Positions 592-45,955 of a stretch of DNA of 64,000 nucleotides are shown one piece after another. The DNA lies in NCBI GenBank assembly GCA_947462105.1, contig CANHNJ010000007.1, positions 19,638-83,637 on the forward strand, written 5' to 3'. Position 1 is the first letter of the stretch. Each line of letters starts with the position of its first letter. The notes under the pieces were generated by a model, which had not been told where the DNA came from, searched no databases, and saw only the letters and a list, made by a program, of their open reading frames with translations. This DNA comes from Alphaproteobacteria bacterium (GTDB taxonomy: Bacteria; Pseudomonadota; Alphaproteobacteria; Micropepsales; Micropepsaceae). Position numbers and translations under genes: made by a program.

Positions 592-617
592 GTCATGCCC
601 ACTTGCGCGGGCATGAT
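592..617. repeat. REP-like palindrome (GTCAT family)
   Basis: GTCATGCCC-ACTTGCGC-GGGCATGAT; same start motif as palindromes at 7386, 7442, 22967, 23020 and 55048. Confidence 0.5.
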
Positions 618-624
618 AATGCAA

Positions 625-1797
625 TCAGGTGCGCTTGGCTTTTGCCGCCGCCGCAAAGCGCTCGAACAGATAGTGCGAATCCATCGGTCCGGGTGACGCC
701 TCGGGATGGTACTGCACGCTGAAGACATCCTTGCCGTCCAGCGCGATGCCGCAATTGGTGCCGTCGAACAGCGAGACATGCGTCTGCTTCACATTGGCCG
801 GCAGCGTGTCGGGATCCACCGTGAAGCCGTGGTTCATCGAGACGATCTCGACCTTGCCGGTGGTGACGTCCTTCACCGGATGGTTGGCGCCGTGATGGCC
901 CTGCGCCATCTTCTTGGTCTTTCCACCCAATGCGAGTCCCAGCATCTGGTGGCCCAGGCAGATGCCGAAAACCGGCGTGCCGGTGGCGATCACGCCCTGG
1001 ATGGTGGGAATGGCATAGACGCCCGTCGCCGCCGGATCACCGGGGCCGTTCGACAGCAGCACGCCGTCGGGCTTGTGGCGCATCACCTCTTCGGTGCTGG
1101 CGCTGGCCGGCACCACGGTGATGTCCGCGCCCATGCTGGCGAGAATACGCAGGATGTTGCGCTTGACGCCGTAATCGATGACCACGGCCTTCCAGCTCGG
1201 CGTGGGCAACGCGCCATAGCCCTTGTCCCAGACCCACTTCGTCTCGTTCCACTTGTAGGTCTGGCGCGAGGTCACGTCCTTGGCGAGGTCGAGGCCTTCC
1301 AGGCCGGGAAAGCCCTGGGCCGCCTTCAGCAGCGCGTCATTGTCGGGCGCGCCATTGACGATGGCGCCATGCGGCATGCCCTTTTCGCGGATCAGGCTGG
1401 TGAGGGCGCGGGTATCGACACCGGCGATGGCGGGAATGTTGTGCTTCTTCAGCCAGCGGTCGAGCGTGGCGATGGCGCGGTAGTTCGACGGATGCTCGGC
1501 ATCCGCACGCACGATCAGGCTGCGCACCACCGGCGTCAGGGTCTCGATATCCTCGTCATTGGTGCCGACAATGCCGATATGCGGGAAGGTGAAGGCCACA
1601 ATCTGCCCGGCATAGCTGGGATCGCTCAGGATCTCCTGGTAGCCGGTCATGGCGGTGTTGAAGCAGACCTCGCCCACCGCGATGCCTTCCGCGCCGAAGC
1701 CGGTGCCGTCAAAGAAGGTGCCGTCCGCCAGCATCAAACCACCGTGCGCAAATGACGCCTCCGCGACGGCGGAGGGGGCGGAAGTTTTGTCGGTCAT
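625..1797 (-). CDS. carA: Carbamoyl-phosphate synthase small subunit
   Basis: GEVCFNTAMTGYQEILSDPSY, SNGPGDP, GICLGHQ, SVQYHPEASPGP motifs. Confidence 0.98.
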   Translation of the reverse strand: MTDKTSAPSAVAEASFAHGGLMLADGTFFDGTGFGAEGIAVGEVCFNTAMTGYQEILSDPSYAGQIVAFTFPHIGIVGTNDEDIETLTPVVRSLIVRADAEHPSNYRAIATLDRWLKKHNIPAIAGVDTRALTSLIREKGMPHGAIVNGAPDNDALLKAAQGFPGLEGLDLAKDVTSRQTYKWNETKWVWDKGYGALPTPSWKAVVIDYGVKRNILRILASMGADITVVPASASTEEVMRHKPDGVLLSNGPGDPAATGVYAIPTIQGVIATGTPVFGICLGHQMLGLALGGKTKKMAQGHHGANHPVKDVTTGKVEIVSMNHGFTVDPDTLPANVKQTHVSLFDGTNCGIALDGKDVFSVQYHPEASPGPMDSHYLFERFAAAAKAKRT

Positions 1798-1881
1798 GGG
1801 AAGCCTCGAATTTGCGCGAAAATAGGGATGTGACAGCAGCGCGTCAACCTGAACTAATCGAGCAAAATCAAGTCGTTGGAA

Positions 1882-1890
1882 TTATCCACG
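1882..1890 (+). promoter_or_regulatory. Possible DnaA box
   Basis: TTATCCACG, an 8/9 match to TTATCCACA, in the carA/yqeY divergent intergenic region. Confidence 0.3.
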
Positions 1891-1932
1891 GTTTCCCGGT
1901 AACGTCCGCGCGCATTTCCAAGCGAGTCTCTT

Positions 1933-2397
1933 ATGTCCCTGCGCCAGACCCTGACCGACGCCATGAAGGACGCGATGAAGGCCAAGCAGCCCGCGCGCCT
2001 CGCCACTATCCGCATGATTCTGGCGGCACTGAAGGACCGCGACATCGCCGCCCGTAGCGAAGACAATCGCGACCTGGTGCCGGATGACGACATCCTCACC
2101 CTCCTGGCCAAGATGGTGAAGCAGCGCGAGGAATCCGCCGCCGTCTATGTCCAGGGCGGCCGCCCCGAACTGGCCCAGAACGAACAGGACGAGATCGCCA
2201 TCATCCGGGACTTCATGCCCAAGCAGATGGAAGAGGCCGAGGCCCGCGCCGCCATCGCCGCCGTGGTCACGGAACTGGGCGCGACCAGCGTCAAGGACAT
2301 GGGCAAGGTGATGGCCGCGCTGAAAGAGCGCTTCGCCGGCCAGATGGATTTCGGCAAGGCCTCCGGTCAGGTGAAAGAAGCCCTGACGCCGAAATAG
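1933..2397 (+). CDS. yqeY: GatB/YqeY domain protein
   Basis: MKDAMKAK...KMVKQREES...KDMGKVM; usual position before dnaG. Confidence 0.92.
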   Translation: MSLRQTLTDAMKDAMKAKQPARLATIRMILAALKDRDIAARSEDNRDLVPDDDILTLLAKMVKQREESAAVYVQGGRPELAQNEQDEIAIIRDFMPKQMEEAEARAAIAAVVTELGATSVKDMGKVMAALKERFAGQMDFGKASGQVKEALTPK

Positions 2398-2542
2398 GCG
2401 CGGTTCTTTTGCGCCGCGGCTTCGCCGAACAGGCTCGCCTCAGGCCATTTTCCAGGAAAAGACTGGATTTTCTGGCTTCATGCACAGGGGAATAGCCAAG
2501 AAACCGCCCCCCGGGCGCTGATTTCAGCGTAGGGTCCGGGCC

Positions 2543-4372
2543 ATGCGCTATGGCGAAGGATTGCTGGAGGAAGTCCGGCGGCGGACCGATCTGGTCGCGC
2601 TGTTAGGCCGCCGCGTCAAGCTGGTGCGCAAGGGCCGGGTGATGTGGGGCTGCTGCCCTTTCCATCCGGAAAAATCGCCCAGCTTCAAGGTCGAGAATGA
2701 GCGCCGCCTCTACAAATGCTTTGGCTGCGGCCAGGGCGGCGACTGCTTCAAGTGGCTGATGGAAACCGAAGGCATGGCCTTCCCCGAAGCGGTGGAAAAG
2801 CTGGCGGCGGAAGCGGGCGTCGAACTGCCGAAATGGTCGCCGGAAGACGAGGCGCGCGAAAGCCGCAAGAAGTCGCTCTACGAGATCATCGAGCTGGCGG
2901 CGCAATTCTATCACGACCAGCTCTTCGCCGATGGTGGGCGGCCTGCGCGCGATTACCTGAAGGGGCGCGGTCTGGATGGCACGGCGGCGAAACAGTTTCG
3001 CCTCGGCTATGCGCCGCCTGGTAACAACGCGCTGATCGATCATCTCACCGCGCACAACATCACCCAGGACGACATGATCGAGGCGGGCCTGGCGCGGCCC
3101 GCACAGGATGGCCGCCCGATGCGCGACTTCTTCTTCGACCGCATCATGTTTCCCATCACCGACGGGCGTGGCCGCACCATTGCCTTTGGCGGCCGCGGCA
3201 TGGCCCCCGATGCCAAGCCCAAATACATCAACACGGGCGAAACACCCTTATTTTCCAAGGGTTCCCAGCTCTACAATTTCCAGACGGCGCGCGCCGCCGC
3301 GATCAAGGCCGGCACCATCATCCTGGCCGAAGGCTATATGGATGTGATCGCACTGGTGCGCGCGGGCTTCGCCCATGCCGTCGCGCCGCTGGGCACCGCC
3401 TTCACCGAAGACCAGTTGCAGATGCTGTGGCGCAGCGCGCCCGAACCGGTGCTGGCCTTTGATGGCGACGATGCGGGCCGCAAGGCGGCGCTGCGGGCGG
3501 CACACATGGCGCTGCCGCATCTCAAGGCCGGACACAGCCTGCGCTTCGCCTTCCTGCCGCAGGGCGAAGACCCCGATACGCTGATCGCGCATCAGGGTGC
3601 GGGCGCGATGGCGGGGCTGATCGACCTGGCGATGCCGTTGTCCGAGCTGCTGTGGCGCAACGAGACCGAGGGCAAGGATTTCTCCACCCCCGAACGCCTG
3701 GCCGGGCTGGAACATGCGCTGCGCGAGATCGCGCAACAGGTTGGTGATCCGCAGATCGGCGCCTATTACCGCGACGCCTTCAAGGAGAAGGTCTTTGCCA
3801 CCTACAAGCGCCGCGCCGCGCCGGTGCCGGGCCGCAGCCCCCGGGGCGAACCCAGCCGGGGTGGCTATGGCCGCACCCGGTTTACACCCCGCCCCCTGCC
3901 GGGGACGCCCGAAGCCCTCTCTGCGGCCGTGCGCCAGTCCCGCCTGGTCCAGGCCGGGGGGGCCGCTGCCCGCCAGGTCAAGGAGGCGGAACTGGCCGGT
4001 TTGCTGTGGGAAGACCCCCAGATCGCCCTGAATCACGCCGAAATGCTGGCCGAGCTGCCTGTCGCCGACCCATCGCTTGACAGGCTGCGCGCCGAACTTC
4101 TAAACCTCGCCGCCTCCGGCTCCAGCCTTGAAAAAGCTGGGGTTCATACCCATTTCGCCCGTCTGGGACTGGCTGAATTCGTGGCGCGCCTTGCGCCCCG
4201 AACCCACCTCCCGGACGGCGGACCGCAAGAGGCTGGTACCGCCGAGGATGATCCTGAAGCCCGGTTCCTGCGCGCCGCACAAGACTTGCGCGAACTGGCG
4301 GATGGACCATCCGAACATAATCGCCTGCTCGGCAGCCGCAAGGCGCGCCATGACGGCGATCTTCGGCGTTGA
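2543..4372 (+). CDS. dnaG: DNA primase
   Basis: CPFHPEKSPSF zinc finger, KYINTGET, AEGYMDV and FDGDDAG TOPRIM motifs. Confidence 0.97.
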   Translation: MRYGEGLLEEVRRRTDLVALLGRRVKLVRKGRVMWGCCPFHPEKSPSFKVENERRLYKCFGCGQGGDCFKWLMETEGMAFPEAVEKLAAEAGVELPKWSPEDEARESRKKSLYEIIELAAQFYHDQLFADGGRPARDYLKGRGLDGTAAKQFRLGYAPPGNNALIDHLTAHNITQDDMIEAGLARPAQDGRPMRDFFFDRIMFPITDGRGRTIAFGGRGMAPDAKPKYINTGETPLFSKGSQLYNFQTARAAAIKAGTIILAEGYMDVIALVRAGFAHAVAPLGTAFTEDQLQMLWRSAPEPVLAFDGDDAGRKAALRAAHMALPHLKAGHSLRFAFLPQGEDPDTLIAHQGAGAMAGLIDLAMPLSELLWRNETEGKDFSTPERLAGLEHALREIAQQVGDPQIGAYYRDAFKEKVFATYKRRAAPVPGRSPRGEPSRGGYGRTRFTPRPLPGTPEALSAAVRQSRLVQAGGAAARQVKEAELAGLLWEDPQIALNHAEMLAELPVADPSLDRLRAELLNLAASGSSLEKAGVHTHFARLGLAEFVARLAPRTHLPDGGPQEAGTAEDDPEARFLRAAQDLRELADGPSEHNRLLGSRKARHDGDLRR

Positions 4373-8184: not shown

Positions 8185-8979
8185 TCAGGGCGAAGGCTGG
8201 ATGATGGCGCGGCGATAGGTCGGCTGGGAATCCCAGGACAGCGCCTTTTCCGTGCCGTCGAACAGCGACGCGAACTTGCCACCGCCCACCTTGAAACTGA
8301 ATTCGCTCACCCGGTCCGGCGGCGTGGTGGTGACGTTGCGGGCAATGTCGGTTTCCTGCTCGGTGCGGGCGACCACCAGCTGCGCCGGATTGGTGGGATT
8401 GTAGAAGCGCACTTCGGACGCGGCGCGGTTGGCGGGGCCGCGCACATACTTCACATGCAGCGTGGCGCTTTCGCCGCCAGTGCCGGTCAGCGACCAATCC
8501 TCGGTCACGGTGGTGCTGCCATTGGCGGTGGCGATGCTGCGGCTGGCGGCGCTGCGCGTCGCCTTGACCAGCGTGCCGAAGGTGGCGGCAGTGGCGCTGT
8601 TGTTCTCGCTGATGCCGGCGATCACCATGCGTCCGGTGGCGGTGCCGCCGGTCTGGCGCACCGGCGCCTCCAGATAGACGGCGATATCCTTGCCCGGCGG
8701 CAGCACGCGGGCCGCACCATCCAGCAGGTTAATGCGGTCAATGAAGATCATGCGCAGGTTGCAGTCCTTGGCCGGACCCTGCGCCGCAACGGCAGGCTCC
8801 CATCCGGCGGGCAGCAGTTTCGCCAGCGCCTGTGCATTCACGGCTACGTCAAGCTGGAAGCGATACTCGTTGGACTGTTCCAGCACCGTGCCGGTGACGG
8901 GCGCGGGTGCAGGTGGCGGCGTCTGCGCCTGCGCGGTGGTGGTGAGCAAAAGCGCCGTCAGCAAAGCCAGTTTCTTCAT
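8185..8979 (-). CDS. Secreted hypothetical protein (signal peptide MKKLALL...AQA)
   Basis: GGGGA RBS, Sec signal peptide followed by a Pro-rich linker; downstream of the amidohydrolase on the same strand. Confidence 0.8.
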   Translation of the reverse strand: MKKLALLTALLLTTTAQAQTPPPAPAPVTGTVLEQSNEYRFQLDVAVNAQALAKLLPAGWEPAVAAQGPAKDCNLRMIFIDRINLLDGAARVLPPGKDIAVYLEAPVRQTGGTATGRMVIAGISENNSATAATFGTLVKATRSAASRSIATANGSTTVTEDWSLTGTGGESATLHVKYVRGPANRAASEVRFYNPTNPAQLVVARTEQETDIARNVTTTPPDRVSEFSFKVGGGKFASLFDGTEKALSWDSQPTYRRAIIQPSP

Positions 8980-8997
8980 GATGTCCCCCAATTGCGC

Positions 8998-9942
8998 TCA
9001 GCCTTTCAGGCCGAGCAGATTGTGTGTGTTGGTCCAGGCGATCTTGCGGAAGACCGCCGGCGTGGCAGCCCCCGCCAGCACGGTCAGCGTCTCGCGCGCC
9101 ACGCATTTGCCGCGAATGCGCGGCGCGACGGTGGGATTATCCCGGCCCGCGCCACGTCCGTCGGCGCAACTGCAATCACTGCCAAAATGCAACTTGTCCT
9201 GGTACTTGATCAGGAATTCCCTGGTGAAGGCGGCATTGCGCGACAGGGCATTGTTGCCCGAATTGGCGGACAGGTCGGCATGCATGTTGGGATAATCCGA
9301 CAGCAGCTTCAGGATCACGCCGCCTGGCGCGATCGGACCTTCGGGATAGACATCCTTTTCCGCATAGTCGCCGCTGATATTGGCCCAGAAGGCGTCGCCA
9401 TGGCCGATGAATTTGGTGCGCGGGAAGGCCTTCAGCATGCCTTCGAAGCGCTTGACGCCCATATTGTAGCCGCCGGGCGCGGCGGGCTGGCCGATCTCCT
9501 GGAAATGCAGCAGCACCGGCACATCCAGTTCGGCGGCGACAGCATAGACGCGGCGCATTTCCGGCCCGCCGGCTTCCACCTGGTATTTGAGCTCACCAAA
9601 GCCCCTGGCGCCGGCTTTTGCCGCGTCGGTCAGGCGCTTCTCGATGTCGGGTGCGGCGACATTATACGCGCCGAACCAGCTGGGGAACATGGCTGGGTTG
9701 CTGGCCTGTACCGCTGCGGTCTGGGCAACGCCATCGGCGCGGGTCAGAAGGTTGGCGGCGGTGATGCCCGCGCCCACCTGGTGCGCGATGCTTTGTTCCG
9801 GTGAGCGCATGTGGAAATGCAGATCGATGACGGGCGAGGGCCAGTGCGGCGCATCTGCAGACGAAGAAACCTGCGCCTGTGCAGACAACAGGCCCGTCGC
9901 TGGAATCGCGCCAAGGCCCGCCAGTACGGAACGCCTGTCCAT
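8998..9942 (-). CDS. Amidohydrolase_2 family metallohydrolase with Tat signal
   Basis: MDRRSVL twin-arginine leader; VIDLHFH, VLLHF, FIGHG, LHFGSD metal motifs. Confidence 0.85.
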   Translation of the reverse strand: MDRRSVLAGLGAIPATGLLSAQAQVSSSADAPHWPSPVIDLHFHMRSPEQSIAHQVGAGITAANLLTRADGVAQTAAVQASNPAMFPSWFGAYNVAAPDIEKRLTDAAKAGARGFGELKYQVEAGGPEMRRVYAVAAELDVPVLLHFQEIGQPAAPGGYNMGVKRFEGMLKAFPRTKFIGHGDAFWANISGDYAEKDVYPEGPIAPGGVILKLLSDYPNMHADLSANSGNNALSRNAAFTREFLIKYQDKLHFGSDCSCADGRGAGRDNPTVAPRIRGKCVARETLTVLAGAATPAVFRKIAWTNTHNLLGLKG

Positions 9943-31529: not shown

Positions 31530-32279
31530 GTGGGCGTGGTTAACATTCTGCAAGAATTGGGTGTGCTGTTGCTTACCGATACTGGCTACGCCTTGGTTGC
31601 GCATCTCGAGCGGCAGGACAGCGGTCCGGCCCTGCTCGCGTCCTTCCAGCGCCTGATCCTCGCCTTCGGCATGGACCATTTCTGGATCGGCGACGTCTCC
31701 AATCCCGATACGCCGCGCGACAATCGCCGTTGGGGCGCCACGTTTCCCGTGGGCTGGTACTGGCGCTATGTCAGCCATAACCATTTTCCGCACGACCCCG
31801 TCGTGATGCGGATCGGCCAGACGACGCGACCTTTCCGCTGGTCGGACAGTTATGACCGCGCCGGGGCGCGGGGCCGGCGCGTGCTCGACGAGGCGGCACA
31901 ATTCGGCATCCGCGACGGCTATGCGATCCCCATCCGTGGCCGTGACGGCAGCCTGGCGATGGTCAGTATCGGCGCCCGGGACTATGCGCTCAGACGGCAG
32001 GACGAGATGGCGCTGCACATGGCCTCGCTCTATCTCCATGCTAGGCTGTCGAGCCTGCGTGGCCATGCCGGCATACGGCCTGCCCCCAAGCTGACACCGC
32101 GCGAACGCGAATGCCTGAAATGGGTGGCGGCGGGCAAGACCGACTAGGAGATTGCCCAGATCCTCGCCATCTCCGAGCAGACCGCGCATGGCTATGTGCA
32201 GAACGCGCTGGTCAAGCTGGGCGCGCGCACCCGTGCCCAGGCGGTGGCGCTGATGCTGACGTCGCAGCTGATGCAATGA
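31530..32279 (+). pseudogene. LuxR-family autoinducer-binding regulator interrupted by TAG (32145-32147) in the HTH domain
   Basis: The frame continues past the stop: GKTD*EIAQILAISEQTAHGYVQNALVKLGARTRAQAVA, ending at TGA 32277-32279. The neighbouring paralog has GKSDWEIG. Start uncertain. Confidence 0.85.
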
Positions 32280-32480
32280 GTGAAAAGCCGCGCAGGCTGG
32301 AAAACGCGAGACGCCGGTTCCCGCGCCCTTGTGGGAGGAACACAATGCCCCCTATTGTCCGATGCAAAGCCGGTGCGCCTTTCGCGCGCCAGGAAAAAGA
32401 AGAATAAGAGCGAAGGGGACAAGTCATTCCTGCCGGCTCCTGACCCGGTATCCGGGCCGGGCGCGCCCCGCCGTGCCGAT

Positions 32481-33191
32481 GTGGTGGAGTCGTTCTCGCG
32501 CAGCGCCCGGGCCGTGGAAGATCGCGACCAGCTTCGCCTGGCTTTCGCCGCCGCCGTGCTGGCGCTGGGCTTCGACCATTATGCCTTGCAGGGCGAGGGC
32601 GCGCGCCTGCTGCCCGCCAACTGGATCTTCCGGCCCGATCCGGCGCGGGACGTGATCTTCGCGGCGGCGGCGCGCTCGCTGTCGCCATTCCTGTGGTCCG
32701 ACATTCCCCGCTTCGTGACGCTCAGTCCTGCCGATGCGCGGGCGCTGGAAAGCGCGCCGCCGGGCCTGGCGGTGCCGATCCATGCCAGCCCCTTCAGCGC
32801 CGGCCTGCAATCGCCGCCCGGCCTGACTGAGCCCAGCGGCTTTGCCGGTTTCTGCTCCTTCCTGATGCGAAAGGGCAGCCCGCTGCCGGTCGAAAGCTTC
32901 GCCGCCGCGCACTATATCGCCACCCTGGCCTATGAGGCGGCGCGCCGGGTTGACCAGGCGCAGCCCGCCCGCCCGCGCCTGACGCCGCGCCAGCGTGACT
33001 GCATGGTGCTGGCGGCGCAGGGCAAGAGCGACTGGGAAATCGGCAAGCTGCTGGGGATCAGCGAATCCACAGTGCACAAGCACATTGAAGATGCGAAGCG
33101 CCGCTTCGGCGTCTCGACCCGGATTCAGCTGGTGGTGCGCGGGCTCGCGGAAGCCAGGCTCAGCTTCGCCGACATTCTTGGGAAAAATTAA
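32481..33191 (+). CDS. LuxR-family transcriptional regulator (divergent ligand-binding domain)
   Basis: LTPRQRDC, GKSDWEIGKLLGISESTVHKH HTH; start uncertain (ORF open from 32280). Confidence 0.88.
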   Translation: MVESFSRSARAVEDRDQLRLAFAAAVLALGFDHYALQGEGARLLPANWIFRPDPARDVIFAAAARSLSPFLWSDIPRFVTLSPADARALESAPPGLAVPIHASPFSAGLQSPPGLTEPSGFAGFCSFLMRKGSPLPVESFAAAHYIATLAYEAARRVDQAQPARPRLTPRQRDCMVLAAQGKSDWEIGKLLGISESTVHKHIEDAKRRFGVSTRIQLVVRGLAEARLSFADILGKN

Positions 33192-33196
33192 GCTCC

Positions 33197-33335
33197 AGCG
33201 CCGCAGCGAAGCTGCGGCGCGACCCCCAGCATCCGACGGCTTCCTTCCCACTTCGGCGCGAAGCTCCAGGAAGGGGGAAGGTGTCGCAACGAGGTGCCTG
33301 CCTCTTGGCAGGCCCGAGTTGCGACGGATGGGGGT
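33197..33335 (-). repeat. ~140-bp structured dispersed repeat, copy A
   Basis: Reverse complement aligns along its length with 42016-42158. Confidence 0.85.
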
Positions 33336-33352
33336 GCAATAAATAAGACGGT

Positions 33353-39717: not shown

Positions 39718-39783
39718 GAGCTGCGCAGCGAAGCCGCGCGACGGCCATCCGCTTGGGCGAAGGGCGGAGGGGATAGTTCAATA
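39718..39783 (-). repeat. Internally deleted third copy of the structured repeat
   Basis: Minus strand TTATTGAAC...CGGATG-GCCGTCGCGC-GGCTTCGCTGCG resembles both ends of copy A. Confidence 0.5.
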
Positions 39784-39886
39784 ACAAAAACCCCGCCCTT
39801 GTGGGCGGGGTTTTTAGGATTGAGCGGACACCCGAGGCGGGCTGTCGAAGGGGCTGGGGGCGTTCCGGATCAGACGTCCGCTCGCA
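39783..39886 (-). ncRNA. Candidate EcfG-dependent small RNA (~100 nt), GsrN-like
   Basis: Perfect GGAAC-N16-CGTT promoter, 8-bp closing stem GAGCGGAC/GTCCGCTC, C-rich internal segment, intrinsic terminator, no meaningful ORF. Confidence 0.55.
39786..39815. terminator. Bidirectional rho-independent terminator
   Basis: AAAAACCCCGCCC-TTGT-GGGCGGGGTTTTT. Confidence 0.9.
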
Positions 39887-39892
39887 GATAAA

Positions 39893-39917
39893 AACGATCC
39901 GCCAAAAAGATCGTTCC
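39893..39917 (-). promoter_or_regulatory. EcfG/sigmaT-type promoter
   Basis: Minus strand GGAAC-GATCTTTTTGGCGGAT-CGTT (exact consensus, 16-nt spacer). Confidence 0.75.
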
Positions 39918-39925
39918 GCGACCTC

Positions 39926-40075
39926 TTAATTATTTTCCGAAGCCGCGATCTGGGTTCCCACTGGCGCAGGCGGGGTGCCGTCGGCGGCAATGAAAAGCAG
40001 GCCCAGCAGCAGGACCGCTGCCATCACGCTTTCGGCAGGATGGTCGGCAAGGAAATTTGGAACCTTGAAGATCAT
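39926..40075 (-). CDS. Small membrane protein (49 aa; missed by ORF track)
   Basis: [49 protein letters not shown]; GAGGAG RBS and ATGA overlap with DUF1328. Confidence 0.7.
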
Positions 40076-40254
40076 GGCATCTCCTCAGGCGGGCGGCCGC
40101 GTAGCGCTCCGGAAAAGGCGCTGACGACCAGAAGAACGAGAAACACGACCAGTAAAAACTTGGCGATGATCGCGGCGGTCCCCGCCAGGCCATAAAAGCC
40201 CATATAGGCGGCGACCAGCGCCAGAACGAAAAAGGCGAAAGCCCAGCTCAGCAT
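40072..40254 (-). CDS. DUF1328 (UPF0391) small membrane protein
   Basis: [34 protein letters not shown]...RGRPP. Confidence 0.9.
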
Positions 40255-40284: not shown

Positions 40285-40309
40285 AACGTCATGCCTAGTT
40301 CCCGGTTCC
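40285..40309 (-). promoter_or_regulatory. EcfG/sigmaT-type promoter of DUF1328
   Basis: Minus strand GGAAC-CGGGAACTAGGCATGA-CGTT (exact consensus), 30 nt upstream of the ATG. Confidence 0.75.
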
Positions 40310-40794: not shown

Positions 40795-41160
40795 TCAGCG
40801 GCGCAGAAAAATCGCCCCGAGAAAGGCGCCGATGCCGCCCGCGATCAGCAGCGAGGTCAGCGGCTGGGCCCGGACTTGGGCACGCAGTTCGTCGGCATTG
40901 TCCTCGGCCCATTCCTGGGCATCGTCCTTGTATTCCACCGCCTTGAGCTTGGCTTCGCGGGCGGCTTCCTCGGCCAGCAGCATGGCGCGGTCCGCCACTT
41001 CCTCGGCGGCCTGCATCGCCGCCGTGGCACGGGCAGATGCGACTTCGCTGACATCGCCGTAAAGGCCCTTGAGATCGCCCTGCAGGGACGCGAAATCATC
41101 GCGCAAGGCCGCGAGCCGCGCTTCGATATTGCCCTGGGCCGTTTTTTTCTTCGCCGCCAT
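40795..41160 (-). CDS. DUF883/ElaB/YqjD family protein
   Basis: Helical body plus C-terminal VRAQPLTSLLIAGGIGAFLGAIFLRR anchor. Confidence 0.88.
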   Translation of the reverse strand: MAAKKKTAQGNIEARLAALRDDFASLQGDLKGLYGDVSEVASARATAAMQAAEEVADRAMLLAEEAAREAKLKAVEYKDDAQEWAEDNADELRAQVRAQPLTSLLIAGGIGAFLGAIFLRR

Positions 41161-41198
41161 GTCGAACGCTCCTGATACCTGAAACAATTATTGAGAGA

Positions 41199-41357
41199 TT
41201 AAGCCGCCTGTTTTGCGACAGGGTGGAAGAACAGCGCCTGGCCCACCGTCGCCTGCACCGTCTCGGGTAGGAAGGGCTTGGCGATGAGGTAGGTCGGCTC
41301 CGGACGCTCGCCGGTCAGCAGCTTTTCCGGATAGGCGGTGATGAAGATCACCGGGAT
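41199..41357 (-). pseudogene. phyR: phyR 3' remnant (last 52 codons of the receiver domain)
   Basis: IPVIFITAYPEKLLTGERPEPTYLIAKPF...QALFF, the characteristic PhyR C-terminus; cut exactly at the IS end. Confidence 0.9.
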
Positions 41358-41490
41358 TGATCGCCCCCCACTGGGTGGTCCGTTTTGATTGTTAGTGCAT
41401 TCCAGCCTCCAGCGCTATGGCCGGCCGTAGGTGGAGCGTAGCGGAACCGGAGGGCGGCCATAGCGGCGACGCGGTTTCGGGAGCCGGCGG
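41358..41490 (-). mobile_element. Right-end remnant of an IS3-family insertion sequence
   Basis: Minus strand encodes PPAPETASPLWPPSGSATLHLRPAIALEAGMH* (IS3-family OrfB-type tail after RPPAPE), then an IR-like ...GGACCACCCAGTGGGGGGCGATCA ending in CA. Confidence 0.75.
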
Positions 41491-42012
41491 CGCGTGAAGC
41501 ATTGATACAGGCCCAGACCCACATCAATGCCCTGGCACTGGTGCAACGCATCCTCAACGAGGCTGGAGAACCAGAGCACCCTCGACCTCAAGGACCTGCT
41601 GGGCGCGCTCTGCCGCCAGATCACCGAGGGCATGGGGGCGGAGAATGTCAGCATCGAGGTCGATGTGCCCAGCCGCGTCGTCACCGGCAGTATCGCGGTG
41701 GCGATTGCGCTGTTCACGGTGGAAGTCCTAACCAGTATCTTTAAGCATGCCTTCCCCGGCCAGCGGCATGGCGTGATCCGGGTGACGATGACCGAGACCG
41801 GCGACGGGAAATTGCGCCTGGGCATCGCCGATGACGGCAGCGGCTTCGAGGAGGGGCAGGCCACCAAGAGCGTCGGCTCCCGCCTGATCAAGATCTTCGG
41901 GCTACAGCTGGGCGGGGTTGCCCAGGTCCGCTCGGTGGCGGGCGAGGGGGCGGTGGTGGAATTGATTTTCCCCGATCCGGCCCTATCGCCGCCTGTTGCC
42001 GCGTCTGTTTGA
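41490..42012 (+). pseudogene. HisKA_2/HWE-type sensor histidine kinase 3' remnant, frameshifted at ~41562
   Basis: AREALIQAQTHINALALVQRILNE, +1 shift, then LENQSTLDL...KHAF...ADDGSGF...GSRLI HATPase; H-box and sensor domain absent. Confidence 0.85.
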
Positions 42013-42015
42013 TGA

Positions 42016-42158
42016 ACCCCCATCCATCGCAACTCGGGTCCGCTAAGTAGCGGACACCTTGTTGCGACACCTTCCCTCTTTCAGGCGCGCCGATGCGCGC
42101 AAAGGGGGAAGGAAGCTGGCGGATGCTGCCGGTCGCCCGGCAGCTGCGCTGCCTGGCT
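42016..42158 (+). repeat. ~140-bp structured dispersed repeat, copy B
   Basis: Aligns with the reverse complement of 33197-33335. Confidence 0.85.
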
Positions 42159-42256
42159 CGCGCATAACCGTAACTCGCATTTTTTCGCGCAAAGACGGTT
42201 TTTTCTGCGCCTTCCAGCCTCTATACCTGCTGCACGAAGCAGGCTGAGGACATGCT

Positions 42257-43657
42257 ATGGCGGATAATTTCGACGTGATCGTGATCGGCGGCGGGCCGGG
42301 CGGCTACAACACCGCCATCCGGGCCGGCCAATTGGGTCTTTCCGCCGCCTGCATCGACAAGCGGGGCCAGTTCGGTGGCACCTGCCTGAACATCGGCTGC
42401 ATCCCGTCCAAGGCGCTGCTGCACGCCTCCGAGCGTTTCCACGAAGCGACCCACGAATTCGCCGCGCTGGGCATCAAGGCGACAGTCGAACTCGACCTGC
42501 CCGCCATGATGGCGAAAAAGGACAAGGTGGTGGGCGAGCTCACCAAGGGCGTCGAATACCTGCTCAAAAAGAACAAGGCCGAGGCCATCACCGGCGAGGC
42601 GAAGATCGTTGCGCCCGGTACCGTGGAAGTGAAAACCAAGGACGGGGTGCGCACCCTGACGGCTAAGAACATCGTCATCGCCACCGGCTCGGATGTGGCG
42701 AAGCTGCAGGGCGTCACCATCGACGAGAAGCAGATTGTCTCGTCCACCGGTGCGCTGGCGCTCAAGGAAGTGCCCAAGCGCCTGCTGGTCGTGGGCGCAG
42801 GCGTGATTGGTCTGGAACTGGGTTCGGTGTGGAAGCGGCTGGGCGCTGACGTCACGGTGGTTGAATTTCTCGACCGCATCACGCCGGGGCTGGATGGCGA
42901 GATCGGCAAGACCTTTCAGCGCGTACTTTCCAAGCAGGGTTTTTCCTTCCAGCTTTCCACCAAGGTGGTGGGTGTTGAAAAGACCAAGAGCGGTCTGAAG
43001 GTCACGGTTGAACCGGCGGCGGGCGGCGAGAAGAGCGTCATCGAAACCGACATCATGCTGGTCGCCATCGGCCGCGCGCCCTACACGGCGAATCTGGGGC
43101 TTGAGGCGGTCGGCGTGGCGCTGGACAAGCGCAGCCGCATCGTCACCGACAATCACTATCGCACCAATGTGCCGGGCATCTATGCCATCGGCGATTGCCG
43201 CGAAGGTGCCATGCTGGCGCACAAGGCCGAGGACGAAGCCGTGGCGGTGGCCGAGATCATCGCGGGCAAGCCCGGTCATGTGAATTACGACACGATTCCG
43301 TCGGTGGTTTATACCTTCCCGGAAGTTGCTTCCGTCGGAAAGACCGAGGAAGAACTCAAGACGGCGGGCATCGCCTACAAGATCGGCAAGTTCCCCTTCA
43401 CCGCCAATGCCCGCGCCAAGACCATCGCTTCCACGGACGGCCTGGTGAAGATCATCGCCGACGCTGCCACCGACAAGGTGCTGGGCTGCCACATCGTCGG
43501 CCCCGAGGCCGGCAACCTGATCGCCGAAGTGGTGCTGGCGATGGAATTCGGCGCGTCGTCGGAAGACATCGCCCGCACCTGTCATCCGCATCCGACGCTG
43601 ACCGAGGCCGTGCGCCAGGCGGCGATGGGTGTGGAAAATTGGACGATGCAAATGTGA
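42257..43657 (+). CDS. lpdA: Dihydrolipoamide dehydrogenase
   Basis: GGTCLNIGCIPSK, GAGVIGLE, MLAHKA, HPHPT. Confidence 0.97.
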   Translation: MADNFDVIVIGGGPGGYNTAIRAGQLGLSAACIDKRGQFGGTCLNIGCIPSKALLHASERFHEATHEFAALGIKATVELDLPAMMAKKDKVVGELTKGVEYLLKKNKAEAITGEAKIVAPGTVEVKTKDGVRTLTAKNIVIATGSDVAKLQGVTIDEKQIVSSTGALALKEVPKRLLVVGAGVIGLELGSVWKRLGADVTVVEFLDRITPGLDGEIGKTFQRVLSKQGFSFQLSTKVVGVEKTKSGLKVTVEPAAGGEKSVIETDIMLVAIGRAPYTANLGLEAVGVALDKRSRIVTDNHYRTNVPGIYAIGDCREGAMLAHKAEDEAVAVAEIIAGKPGHVNYDTIPSVVYTFPEVASVGKTEEELKTAGIAYKIGKFPFTANARAKTIASTDGLVKIIADAATDKVLGCHIVGPEAGNLIAEVVLAMEFGASSEDIARTCHPHPTLTEAVRQAAMGVENWTMQM

Positions 43658-43666
43658 CATCGCGCT

Positions 43667-44864
43667 TTAGCGCGAATTTACATGCTCCGGCCTGACGCCC
43701 AGGCCGATGAAGCGCGCCGGGTATTTCCGCAAGAAGGCATGGCGGTCCAGCAGCCACAGCAGCAACGGCACTTTTGGTAGGCGCCAGGAAGCGGTTCTGG
43801 ATCGCTACCTGGAACATCTGCACCATGCGGGTGGGGAATTCGCGCCGCTTCTGCACCTTGTTCAGTTCACCCAGCCTGGGCACGCCCTTGCGCAGGATCG
43901 GCGCCAAGATGTTCGCCGCCGCCACCGCATCCTGTACCGCTAGGTTGATGCCTATACCGCCCATCGGCGACATGGCATGCGCGGCGTCGCCGATACAAAG
44001 CAGGCCCGGCCTCGTCCACTGCATCAGCCGGTTCACAGCCACCGTCAGCAGCTTCACCTGTACAAAGTCATGGATGGCGTCTTCGATGCTGCCATCCTCG
44101 AAGTCGGTGGCGACGCGCAGCCGCTGGCGGAAGGCGGTGATACCTTCGGCGCGGATGGCATCAAAACCACCCTTTGCGATCACCATCGCGCATTGCCAAT
44201 AATCGCCGCGCGGAATCATCACGAACATTTGGCCTGTCGCCAGTTTTCCCGCCACATCGTCCGGCTCGCCCGGCAAGCGCGGCAGGCGCAACCAGAGAAC
44301 GTCGAAAGGCGCGCCAAGCTCCTTCAGCTTCAGTCCCGACTTTGTGCGCAGTGCGGAATGACGGCCATCGGCGGCCACGGTCAGCCCGGCGCGGATCTGG
44401 ATGTTGCTGGACGCACTTTTGGCCAGCACACCGGCGATGCGCTCGCCGGTCTTGGGGTTGCTCTGGGCTAGCAGGTCTTTCGCCTCTGTCTCCATCAGCA
44501 GGCGGAATTTGGGATAGGCCCTGGCCTTGCGAACCAGGAAATCCCATTGCGGCATCATGGCGATGAAATTGCACGGCTCCGGCAGCCGTGACAGGTCGGC
44601 GAAAGCATAGTGCCGCGCGCCGATATCGATGCCGGCCTGGAAGACGCGGGCATGCGGCAGGGCGAGGAATTCCTCCAGCAACCCAAGTTCGTGCATGATC
44701 TGCAGCGTGGAGGGATGCACCGTGTCGCCGCGAAAATCGCGCAGGAAATCGCGATGCTTTTCCAGCACCGTCACGTCCACGCCGCCGCGCGCCAGCAACA
44801 GCCCCAGCATCATGCCGGCAGGGCCGCCGCCAGCGATGACGCAGGTGGTCGAAAGACTTTCCAT
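43667..44864 (-). pseudogene. UbiH-like FAD-dependent oxidoreductase with C-terminal frameshift (~43775)
   Basis: GGGPAG, DFRGDT, ADGRHS, GDAAHAMSPMGGIGINLA. The family-type tail KVPLLLWLLDRHAFLRKYPARFIGLGVRPEHVNSR* lies in another frame. Confidence 0.75.
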
Positions 44865-45869: not shown

Positions 45870-45955
45870 TGGTAGGCCCGGCCGGACTTGAACCGGCACA
45901 TCCTTGCGGACAACGGATTTTAAGTCCGGTGCGTCTACCATTCCGCCACGGGCCC
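45870..45955 (-). tRNA. trnL: tRNA-Leu (anticodon UAA), CCA encoded
   Basis: GGGCCCG acceptor, GGCGGAATGGTAGACGC D-arm, CT-TAA-AA loop, long variable arm, GGTTCAAGTCC T-arm, ...CCTA-CCA; C:U mismatch at the top of the anticodon stem. Confidence 0.95.

Follow-up and report, generated by a model that had tools for sequence, protein, structure and literature searches.

Null alleles of rpoS exist in natural and laboratory E. coli, and the general stress response (GSR) switch of the Alphaproteobacteria, PhyR-NepR-EcfG, has been studied by means of laboratory knockouts. Insertion sequences of the IS3 family are elements of ~1.2-1.3 kb that have TG...CA ends, carry orfA and orfB with a programmed -1 frameshift, and have a left inverted repeat and a target duplication of 3-4 bp. 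The PhyR-NepR-EcfG switch is broadly conserved in Alphaproteobacteria, and small RNAs of the GsrN-like type are found beside the GSR locus, behind a near-consensus EcfG promoter, with a 5′ stem-loop that exposes a C-rich loop (PMC5869019). Literature searches for natural phyR or ecfG (PhyR-NepR-EcfG) deletion alleles returned no earlier report. The 64-kb window described here, meaning the whole stretch of 64,000 nucleotides that was analysed, keeps both outer ends of a canonical GSR locus, phyR and a kinase gene, in their proper orientations. It differs from that locus in the deletion of the core between them, and the kinase of this clade differs from PhyK of Caulobacter in carrying a periplasmic dCache_1 sensor domain.

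The left part of the locus (41199..41357, minus strand) is a remnant of phyR, consisting of codons 215-266 and the stop codon (41199-41201), with the translation IPVIFITAYPEKLLTGERPEPTYLIAKPFLPETVQATVGQALFFHPVAKQAA before the stop, and does not amount to a PhyR protein. A profile search matched this remnant to positions 211-256 of the 258-position NCBIfam PhyR model NF006623 with an E-value of 4.6e-21, and the next-best match, to a generic response-regulator model, reached only 0.16. Residue for residue, the 52 amino acids agree with positions 215-266 of the intact 266-aa PhyR encoded by L023 and sister contigs, and homology to the intact alleles stops precisely at 41357. Codons 1-214 are absent from the window, and the sigma-like domain, the receiver phospho-acceptor part and the promoter are gone. 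Located 38 bp downstream of phyR in the same orientation is the left anchor of the locus, a gene encoding a 121-aa DUF883/ElaB-like membrane protein (40795..41160, minus strand; weak Pfam DUF883_C match), whose product is identical beside intact phyR in L013, L016 and L023. A scan of the genome collection with this protein gave a best match of 89% among the matches listed. A sigma-70-like promoter able to drive the DUF883 gene was sought at the new junction and none was found.

Adjoining the phyR breakpoint is a 133-bp right end of an IS3-family element (41358..41490, minus strand), identified by BLASTn to annotated IS3 family transposase records. It comprises the terminal inverted repeat and untranslated end (41358-41391, TGATCGCCCCCCACTGGGTGGTCC...), the OrfB stop (41392-41394) and the last 32 OrfB codons (41395-41490, including PPAPETASPLWPP and ending in MH before the stop). 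The BLASTn search with 41358-41490 returned 52 plasmid records, mainly from sphingomonads and Acidiphilium, in which the annotated overlaps are mostly IS3 family transposase; identity is 82-86% to the transposase 3′ ends and terminal inverted repeat of IS3-family elements on plasmids of Sphingobium, Rhizorhabdus and Acidiphilium. The match in L001 and L002 spans the last 100 nt of the transposase gene and the 34 nt to the end of the element, and a three-way alignment places the beginning of IS homology exactly at the TGA (41358) and its stop at 41490/41491. The reference IS is ~1,266 bp long with TGATC...GATCA ends, and its left repeat was found in the reference copies. As is characteristic of the IS3 family, a terminal inverted repeat starting 5′-TG adjoins the 3′ end of a DDE transposase gene (orfB). 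The remnant thus shares with this family its TGA start and its similarity to the 3′ end and 34-nt terminal repeat, and differs in that 133 of ~1,266 bp are left, with no transposase, left end or target duplication, making it an immobile fossil. Apart from this remnant, no further IS copies were found in the 64-kb window. The 133-bp piece was also considered as a mobile mini-element and rejected, its inner end being unlike TG/CA and sitting in a microhomology. In some lake metagenomes (runs X3, X7, X9 and X22) the 31-mers of the remnant occur at ~120-470x compared with 10-20x for the locus, and in the high-depth metagenomes the remnant sequence runs on into the full IS and other flanks; run X2 is unbranched. 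Run X22, which holds the intact allele only, also contains a 5.7-kb contig of the same depth that bears another right-end piece of ~104 nt; isolated short right ends of IS3 elements are apparently recurrent.

The right part of the locus (41491..42012, plus strand) is a phyK remnant that begins at ~codon 413 of the 587-aa call and extends to its stop codon, as assigned by model NF051872 and by alignment with P0002 of L023. The remnant matches positions 379-537 of the 537-position PhyK model (NF051872, E 1.3e-18) and HATPase_c, and is matched by HisKA_2 at the distal profile positions 31-74 only (E 0.092). What is left encodes the distal DHp helix together with the CA (ATPase) domain. Lost are the H-box, the transmembrane segments and the periplasmic dCache domain; the H-box EIHHRVKNNLQ of P0002 maps upstream of the breakpoint and is missing in the window. 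With 92% identity to the C-terminus of the full-length orthologue P0002 and the same place before lpdA, the remnant is clearly a predicted orthologue of the ecfG-adjacent, PhyK-type HWE/HisKA_2 kinase (families PF07568 and PF07536). The lpdA gene itself, encoding a 466-aa dihydrolipoyl dehydrogenase (42257..43657, plus strand; Pfam families), forms the right anchor and lies downstream of phyK in all relatives. Further lesions mark the remnant. An insertion of one G (41559..41561, plus strand) shifts the frame, and its removal restores NELENQ as in L023. The extra G is missing in the scarred contigs L004, L008, L015 and L021, which read through as a 168-aa ORF, and likewise in a contig from run X2; since scarred contigs are polymorphic for it, the frameshift is younger than the deletion. 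The N-box Asn is replaced by Ser (41734..41736, plus strand), changing TNIFKHAF to TSIFKHAF relative to P0002, P0003, P0004 and L025. With L025 as outgroup, 8 amino-acid changes in the remnant fall on the window branch, including the N-box substitution and a His>Gln in the conserved LVHRIL stretch, compared with 4 on the intact branch, and dN/dS is 0.29 compared with 0.20 between functional orthologues, a mild excess that is not significant. Together, the dN/dS and branch counts are suggestive of relaxed selection on the remnant, short of significance.

The original prediction had described three fragments fused base to base, namely the last 52 codons of phyR on the minus strand, a 133-bp IS3-type right end beginning at the phyR breakpoint, and the 3′ part of a kinase gene that lacks its H-box and carries a frameshift and an N-box Asn>Ser. 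Profile matches, BLASTn and alignment to the intact sisters bear out this description and both of its junctions; the first fragment is confirmed by the NF006623 match and its identity to the end of intact PhyR, the second by BLASTn homology from the TGA at 41358, and the third by NF051872 and the alignment to P0002. None of these matches is due to chance.

Sister contigs were found by exact-protein look-ups that included both flanking genes, and most of the contigs returned were scarred. The intact gene order is DUF883 and phyR on one strand, divergent from nepR, ecfG, phyK and lpdA on the other, as seen in L023 and L024 and, in the same gene order, in L013 and L016. The latter two, which are JGI lake contigs, encode a 266-aa PhyR, a 64-aa NepR, an EcfG of 207/208 aa, a dCache_1 kinase and LpdA, and the outer genes are also shared; the NepR (PF18557) and Sigma70_r2/r4 families were called on genes of the intact contigs. 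A homology search with the kinase of L013/L016 identified P0002, which is 98% identical, is itself full length, has HWE_HK/HisKA_2 domains, and sits on L023 (NCBI MAG GCA_947463245.1) and L024, where the locus is complete. The window is 98.7% identical to L013 across 10.6 kb on the left side and 99.2% identical to L023 up to 41357, where the alignment breaks off to resume from 41485. Lost relative to L023 are its positions 599-3430, a stretch of 2,832 bp that holds phyR codons 1-214, the divergent promoter region, nepR, ecfG and ~412 phyK codons including the H-box. The outer junction is the IS terminus at the phyR breakpoint, and the inner junction lies inside CGGCGGC, a 7-bp microhomology (41485..41491) common to the IS interior and phyK, as determined by comparing the window, L023 and L001/L002. 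Beyond the nearest sisters, the order lpdA, phyK, ecfG, nepR, then divergent phyR and DUF883, was present in 16 of 18 representatives of related species among the matches listed, these relatives being MAGs that bear the label Rhizomicrobium sp. or Alphaproteobacteria and originate from soils as well as from lakes and rivers. An ancestral locus with phyR divergent from nepR-ecfG and a kinase gene after them, as first proposed, is therefore what the sister genotypes and 16 of these 18 relatives contain, and nepR and ecfG do lie between phyR and the kinase gene. The proposal that the deletion took the sigma-like domain of phyR, nepR, ecfG and the 5′ end of the kinase gene agrees with the exact content of the missing 2,832 bp, which also include the greater part of the PhyR receiver.

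The region is very likely a deletion scar created by IS insertion followed by a microhomology deletion, the order of these two steps being one that we infer from the junctions. Transposition fits because the phyR junction sits at the IS terminus, and a later illegitimate deletion fits because the IS interior joins phyK through the 7-bp microhomology; insertion into phyR and then deletion, the sequence of events in the original prediction, is supported on both counts. In the first step, an IS3-family element of ~1.27 kb would have inserted in phyR, separating codon 214 from codon 215, in the orientation that turns the right end of the element (OrfB 3′ end and inverted repeat) towards the 3′ part of phyR. 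Illegitimate recombination between CGGCGGC in orfB, 133 bp from the end of the IS, and the same heptamer in phyK at ~codon 412 would then have removed ~1.13 kb of the IS and the 2,832 bp of chromosome, ~4 kb in all. Subsequently the scarred allele would have spread through a freshwater lineage whose relatives include MAGs labelled Rhizomicrobium (Micropepsaceae), decaying further by the N-box Asn>Ser and, in some members of that lineage, by the +1 G frameshift; it would now coexist with intact genotypes. As a process, IS-driven gene loss with a microhomology deletion is ordinary genome decay; its target here is unusually important.

Directly to the right of the scar, from 41491 to ~44500, identity of the window to the intact alleles drops to 92-96%, compared with ~99-100% on either side. 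In this tract dS is 0.096 and dN/dS 0.15 for lpdA, and dS is 0.139 for the phyK tail. Relative to the outgroup L025 the divergence is symmetric, with 25 and 20 nt changes, and this symmetry argues for deeper coalescence, as in a recombination tract, and not for faster decay. The ~3-kb tract is probably a recombination tract, which could either be unrelated to the scar or be the mark of an import that made the inner junction. Its presence and symmetry are what recommend another path to the same end state, in which the IS first inserted elsewhere between phyR and phyK and an IS-mediated adjacent deletion extended to codon 214, or in which a diverged relative supplied DNA whose integration was homologous at one end and illegitimate at the other. 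Such a path is unlikely, however, as it requires one event more than insertion then deletion, and the left edge of the tract may fall anywhere in the deleted 2.8 kb and need not coincide with the scar.

The junctions were recovered repeatedly. At least 14 independently assembled scarred contigs have invariant junctions and differ from the window by up to 0.8% elsewhere; they come from different samples and assemblers, including MEGAHIT k141 contigs, NCBI MAGs and Logan contigs, and the MAGs that carry the scar include GCA_964860735.1, GCA_943322545.2, GCA_947465835.1, GCA_947476115.1 and GCA_947472195.1. Eight studies contributed the 20 public runs, from lakes and rivers, in which the 31-mers of the scar are present. 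A single unbranched Logan contig of run X2 crosses both junctions (40900-41591) with no mismatch, and in X3, X7, X8 and X9 both are covered by overlapping Logan contigs. Support for the junctions consists of contigs, not raw reads, and in this form both junctions of the original prediction were confirmed in independent assemblies and in Logan contigs of separate runs. An assembly chimera at a repeated IS might be suspected behind the three-way fusion, the 31-mers of the remnant reaching 230-470x in X7 and X9 compared with 14-20x for the locus, which marks the element as a repeat in those communities. Such an artefact is nevertheless extremely improbable, as it would have to produce the same junctions with different assemblers in different samples and studies, to pass through both of them in the unbranched X2 contig, and to endow scarred contigs with secondary mutations and a distinct right-hand tract in common.

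The scar has intact counterparts in the same kind of habitat. The segment specific to the intact allele occurs in another set of freshwater runs, and X7, X9 and X20 are on both lists. Depth of the intact allele was measured on L055, a contig from the JGI collection of the same allele class as L023. Depths in X7 and X9 are 14-20x for the scar-specific part and, with some mismatches, ~3-9x for the intact-specific segment; the left flank in X20 and X22 continues into intact phyR, and the scar-specific part is at zero depth there. By these run depths, some waters contain both scarred and intact genotypes, and others only one of the two. An intermediate with a complete IS in phyR was not found among JGI contigs containing the 30-mer left of the breakpoint, 30 of 30 of which continue as intact phyR; the scar likewise occurs in 0 of these 30.

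Given the content of the deletion, the locus is null for all four core switch components (phyR, nepR, ecfG and phyK), the sigma factor, the anti-sigma factor, the anti-anti-sigma factor and the phosphodonor all being lost from it. The cell would probably be without any general stress response, a real knockout in nature. No other homologue of phyR, nepR, ecfG or an HWE kinase was found in the 64-kb window, nor does a second copy lie within 10 kb of the locus in the 18 related species among the matches listed, and phyR is usually single-copy. All of this counts against the somewhat unlikely alternative that the scar removes one copy only, and that a paralogous phyR/nepR/ecfG set or a NepR-independent EcfG paralogue keeps the GSR running. 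That alternative draws on copy numbers reported in PMC4814048 and PMC3892343, where ecfG paralogues, and less often those of nepR and phyR, are common elsewhere in alphaproteobacterial genomes, about half of the genomes of the class having at least two ecfG genes and S. meliloti having two phyR and two nepR genes. It also draws on the EcfG-type promoters and an EcfG-dependent small RNA near the scar that are still intact; however, intact promoters are to be expected in any case, because the loss is recent (~1% flank divergence). A real knockout remains the favoured reading.

Two of these promoters lie to the left of the scar. A regular-expression scan found GGAAC-N16-CGTT at 40285..40309 (minus strand) before a DUF1328 gene (40072-40254), and this motif occupies the same place in most relatives. 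A second promoter of the same form (39917-39893) precedes a candidate small RNA of ~100 nt (39885-39785), the two together spanning 39785..39917 on the minus strand. In the candidate a long 5′ stem carries a C-rich loop of 24 nt and is accompanied by an intrinsic terminator, the sequence of which differs between the scarred and intact alleles. The candidate has a predicted fold of -50.6 kcal/mol (z -5.1), and its core is nearly invariant in seven related species, every time behind the same promoter type; in L013 and L016 the -35 of this promoter reads GGAGC. Four GGAAC-N16-CGTT motifs were found in the 64 kb compared with about one expected by chance. In an Rfam search of the window only a tRNA (45873-45955, minus strand) scored above the gathering threshold, leaving the small RNA without an Rfam family; sub-threshold Rfam matches at 39765-39910 were dismissed as terminator-driven. 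By the criteria of PMC5869019 the candidate is a putative GsrN-like RNA, likened to GsrN by its position and predicted features and differing from it in having no Rfam match, and it would be orphaned by the loss of ecfG. Both EcfG-type promoters are now without a sigma factor at the locus.

The scar is one of several lesions found at this locus. In a second allele, carried by L013 (6757-8088) and L016, phyK has lost 306 bp in frame, between copies of a 7-bp repeat, and with them the DHp/H-box domain, whereas phyR, nepR and ecfG are intact; Pfam calls on this kinase are dCache_1 and HATPase_c only. In Caulobacter PhyK the phospho-accepting His is required for the response and ATP binding is not (PMC5964349), and because this His is essential there, the H-box-deletion allele is probably signalling-dead too. 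A third lesion is present in a sister species, on L026 (MAG CH-Jul18-205, contig CANFDA010000012.1), which has ~87% nucleotide identity to the window and retains a full phyR without nepR, ecfG or phyK at the locus. The interval between its lpdA and phyR (8360-9170) holds nothing but a SET-domain ORF and, from an IS3-family element other than that of the window, a right end of 146 bp that stops ~26 bp upstream of phyR. Compared with the nearest intact relative, L025, ~4.1 kb is gone, and homology between the two also ends right after a 117-aa gene, the DUF1328 and small-RNA region being missing there. In L028 all genes of the locus are present but fragmented, probably through assembly errors. 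At least two independent IS3-linked deletions and one internal deletion have apparently arisen within one small clade, to judge from these alignments.

A tentative and still speculative reading of these lesions is that planktonic freshwater relatives of Rhizomicrobium keep losing the GSR, with selection or strong relaxation as the probable cause, one species-level population being in at least three states (intact, phyK without its H-box domain, and core deleted) and a sister species having an independent deletion. If true, stress-proof and stress-blind genotypes would share the same lakes, and the Alphaproteobacteria would have their own equivalent of the on/off polymorphism of rpoS. In both cases some members of a natural population have an inactivated master stress regulator, the functional allele coexists with the inactive one, and the lesions recur. 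They differ in that the present case concerns a partner switch of ECF sigma, anti-sigma and anti-anti-sigma factors in an uncultured freshwater organism known from sequence alone. The interest of the locus is increased by a loss that is apparently polymorphic in nature and recurrent. The deletion allele is natural and widespread, and near-isogenic intact genotypes inhabit the same waters; an intermediate allele is available as well, as is a sister species with a loss of its own. The locus opens to existing lake time series both the cost and benefit of the GSR in a dilute planktonic habitat and the fate of the orphaned regulon of EcfG promoters and the GsrN-like small RNA.

Several minor features were observed in the surroundings of the locus. 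A gene for an FAD-binding monooxygenase (43452-44864, minus strand) has a 20-bp deletion near 43775 relative to L013, where the protein is 412 aa long, and the resulting frameshift turns its last ~38 residues into a long tail that overlaps lpdA; an 87-bp intergenic deletion lies beside this gene, and in-frame indels occur around 44400-44530. An intergenic dispersed repeat of ~160 nt is present in inverted orientation at 42008-42167 and 33188-33343, the copies being 79-80% identical, and its core (42102-42141) recurs on many other lake-metagenome contigs with different flanks; it may be a REP- or MITE-like element. Two regulator genes lie further to the left. The first, encoding a LuxR-type regulator with an autoinducer-binding domain (31530-32276, plus strand), has a premature stop after residue 205 in the window and is 249 aa long in L013. 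The second, encoding a GerE-type regulator (32280-33191, plus strand), is a single 303-aa ORF in the window and is split into 211-aa and 62-aa ORFs in L013, and on these predicted reading frames each of the two lineages has broken a different regulator.
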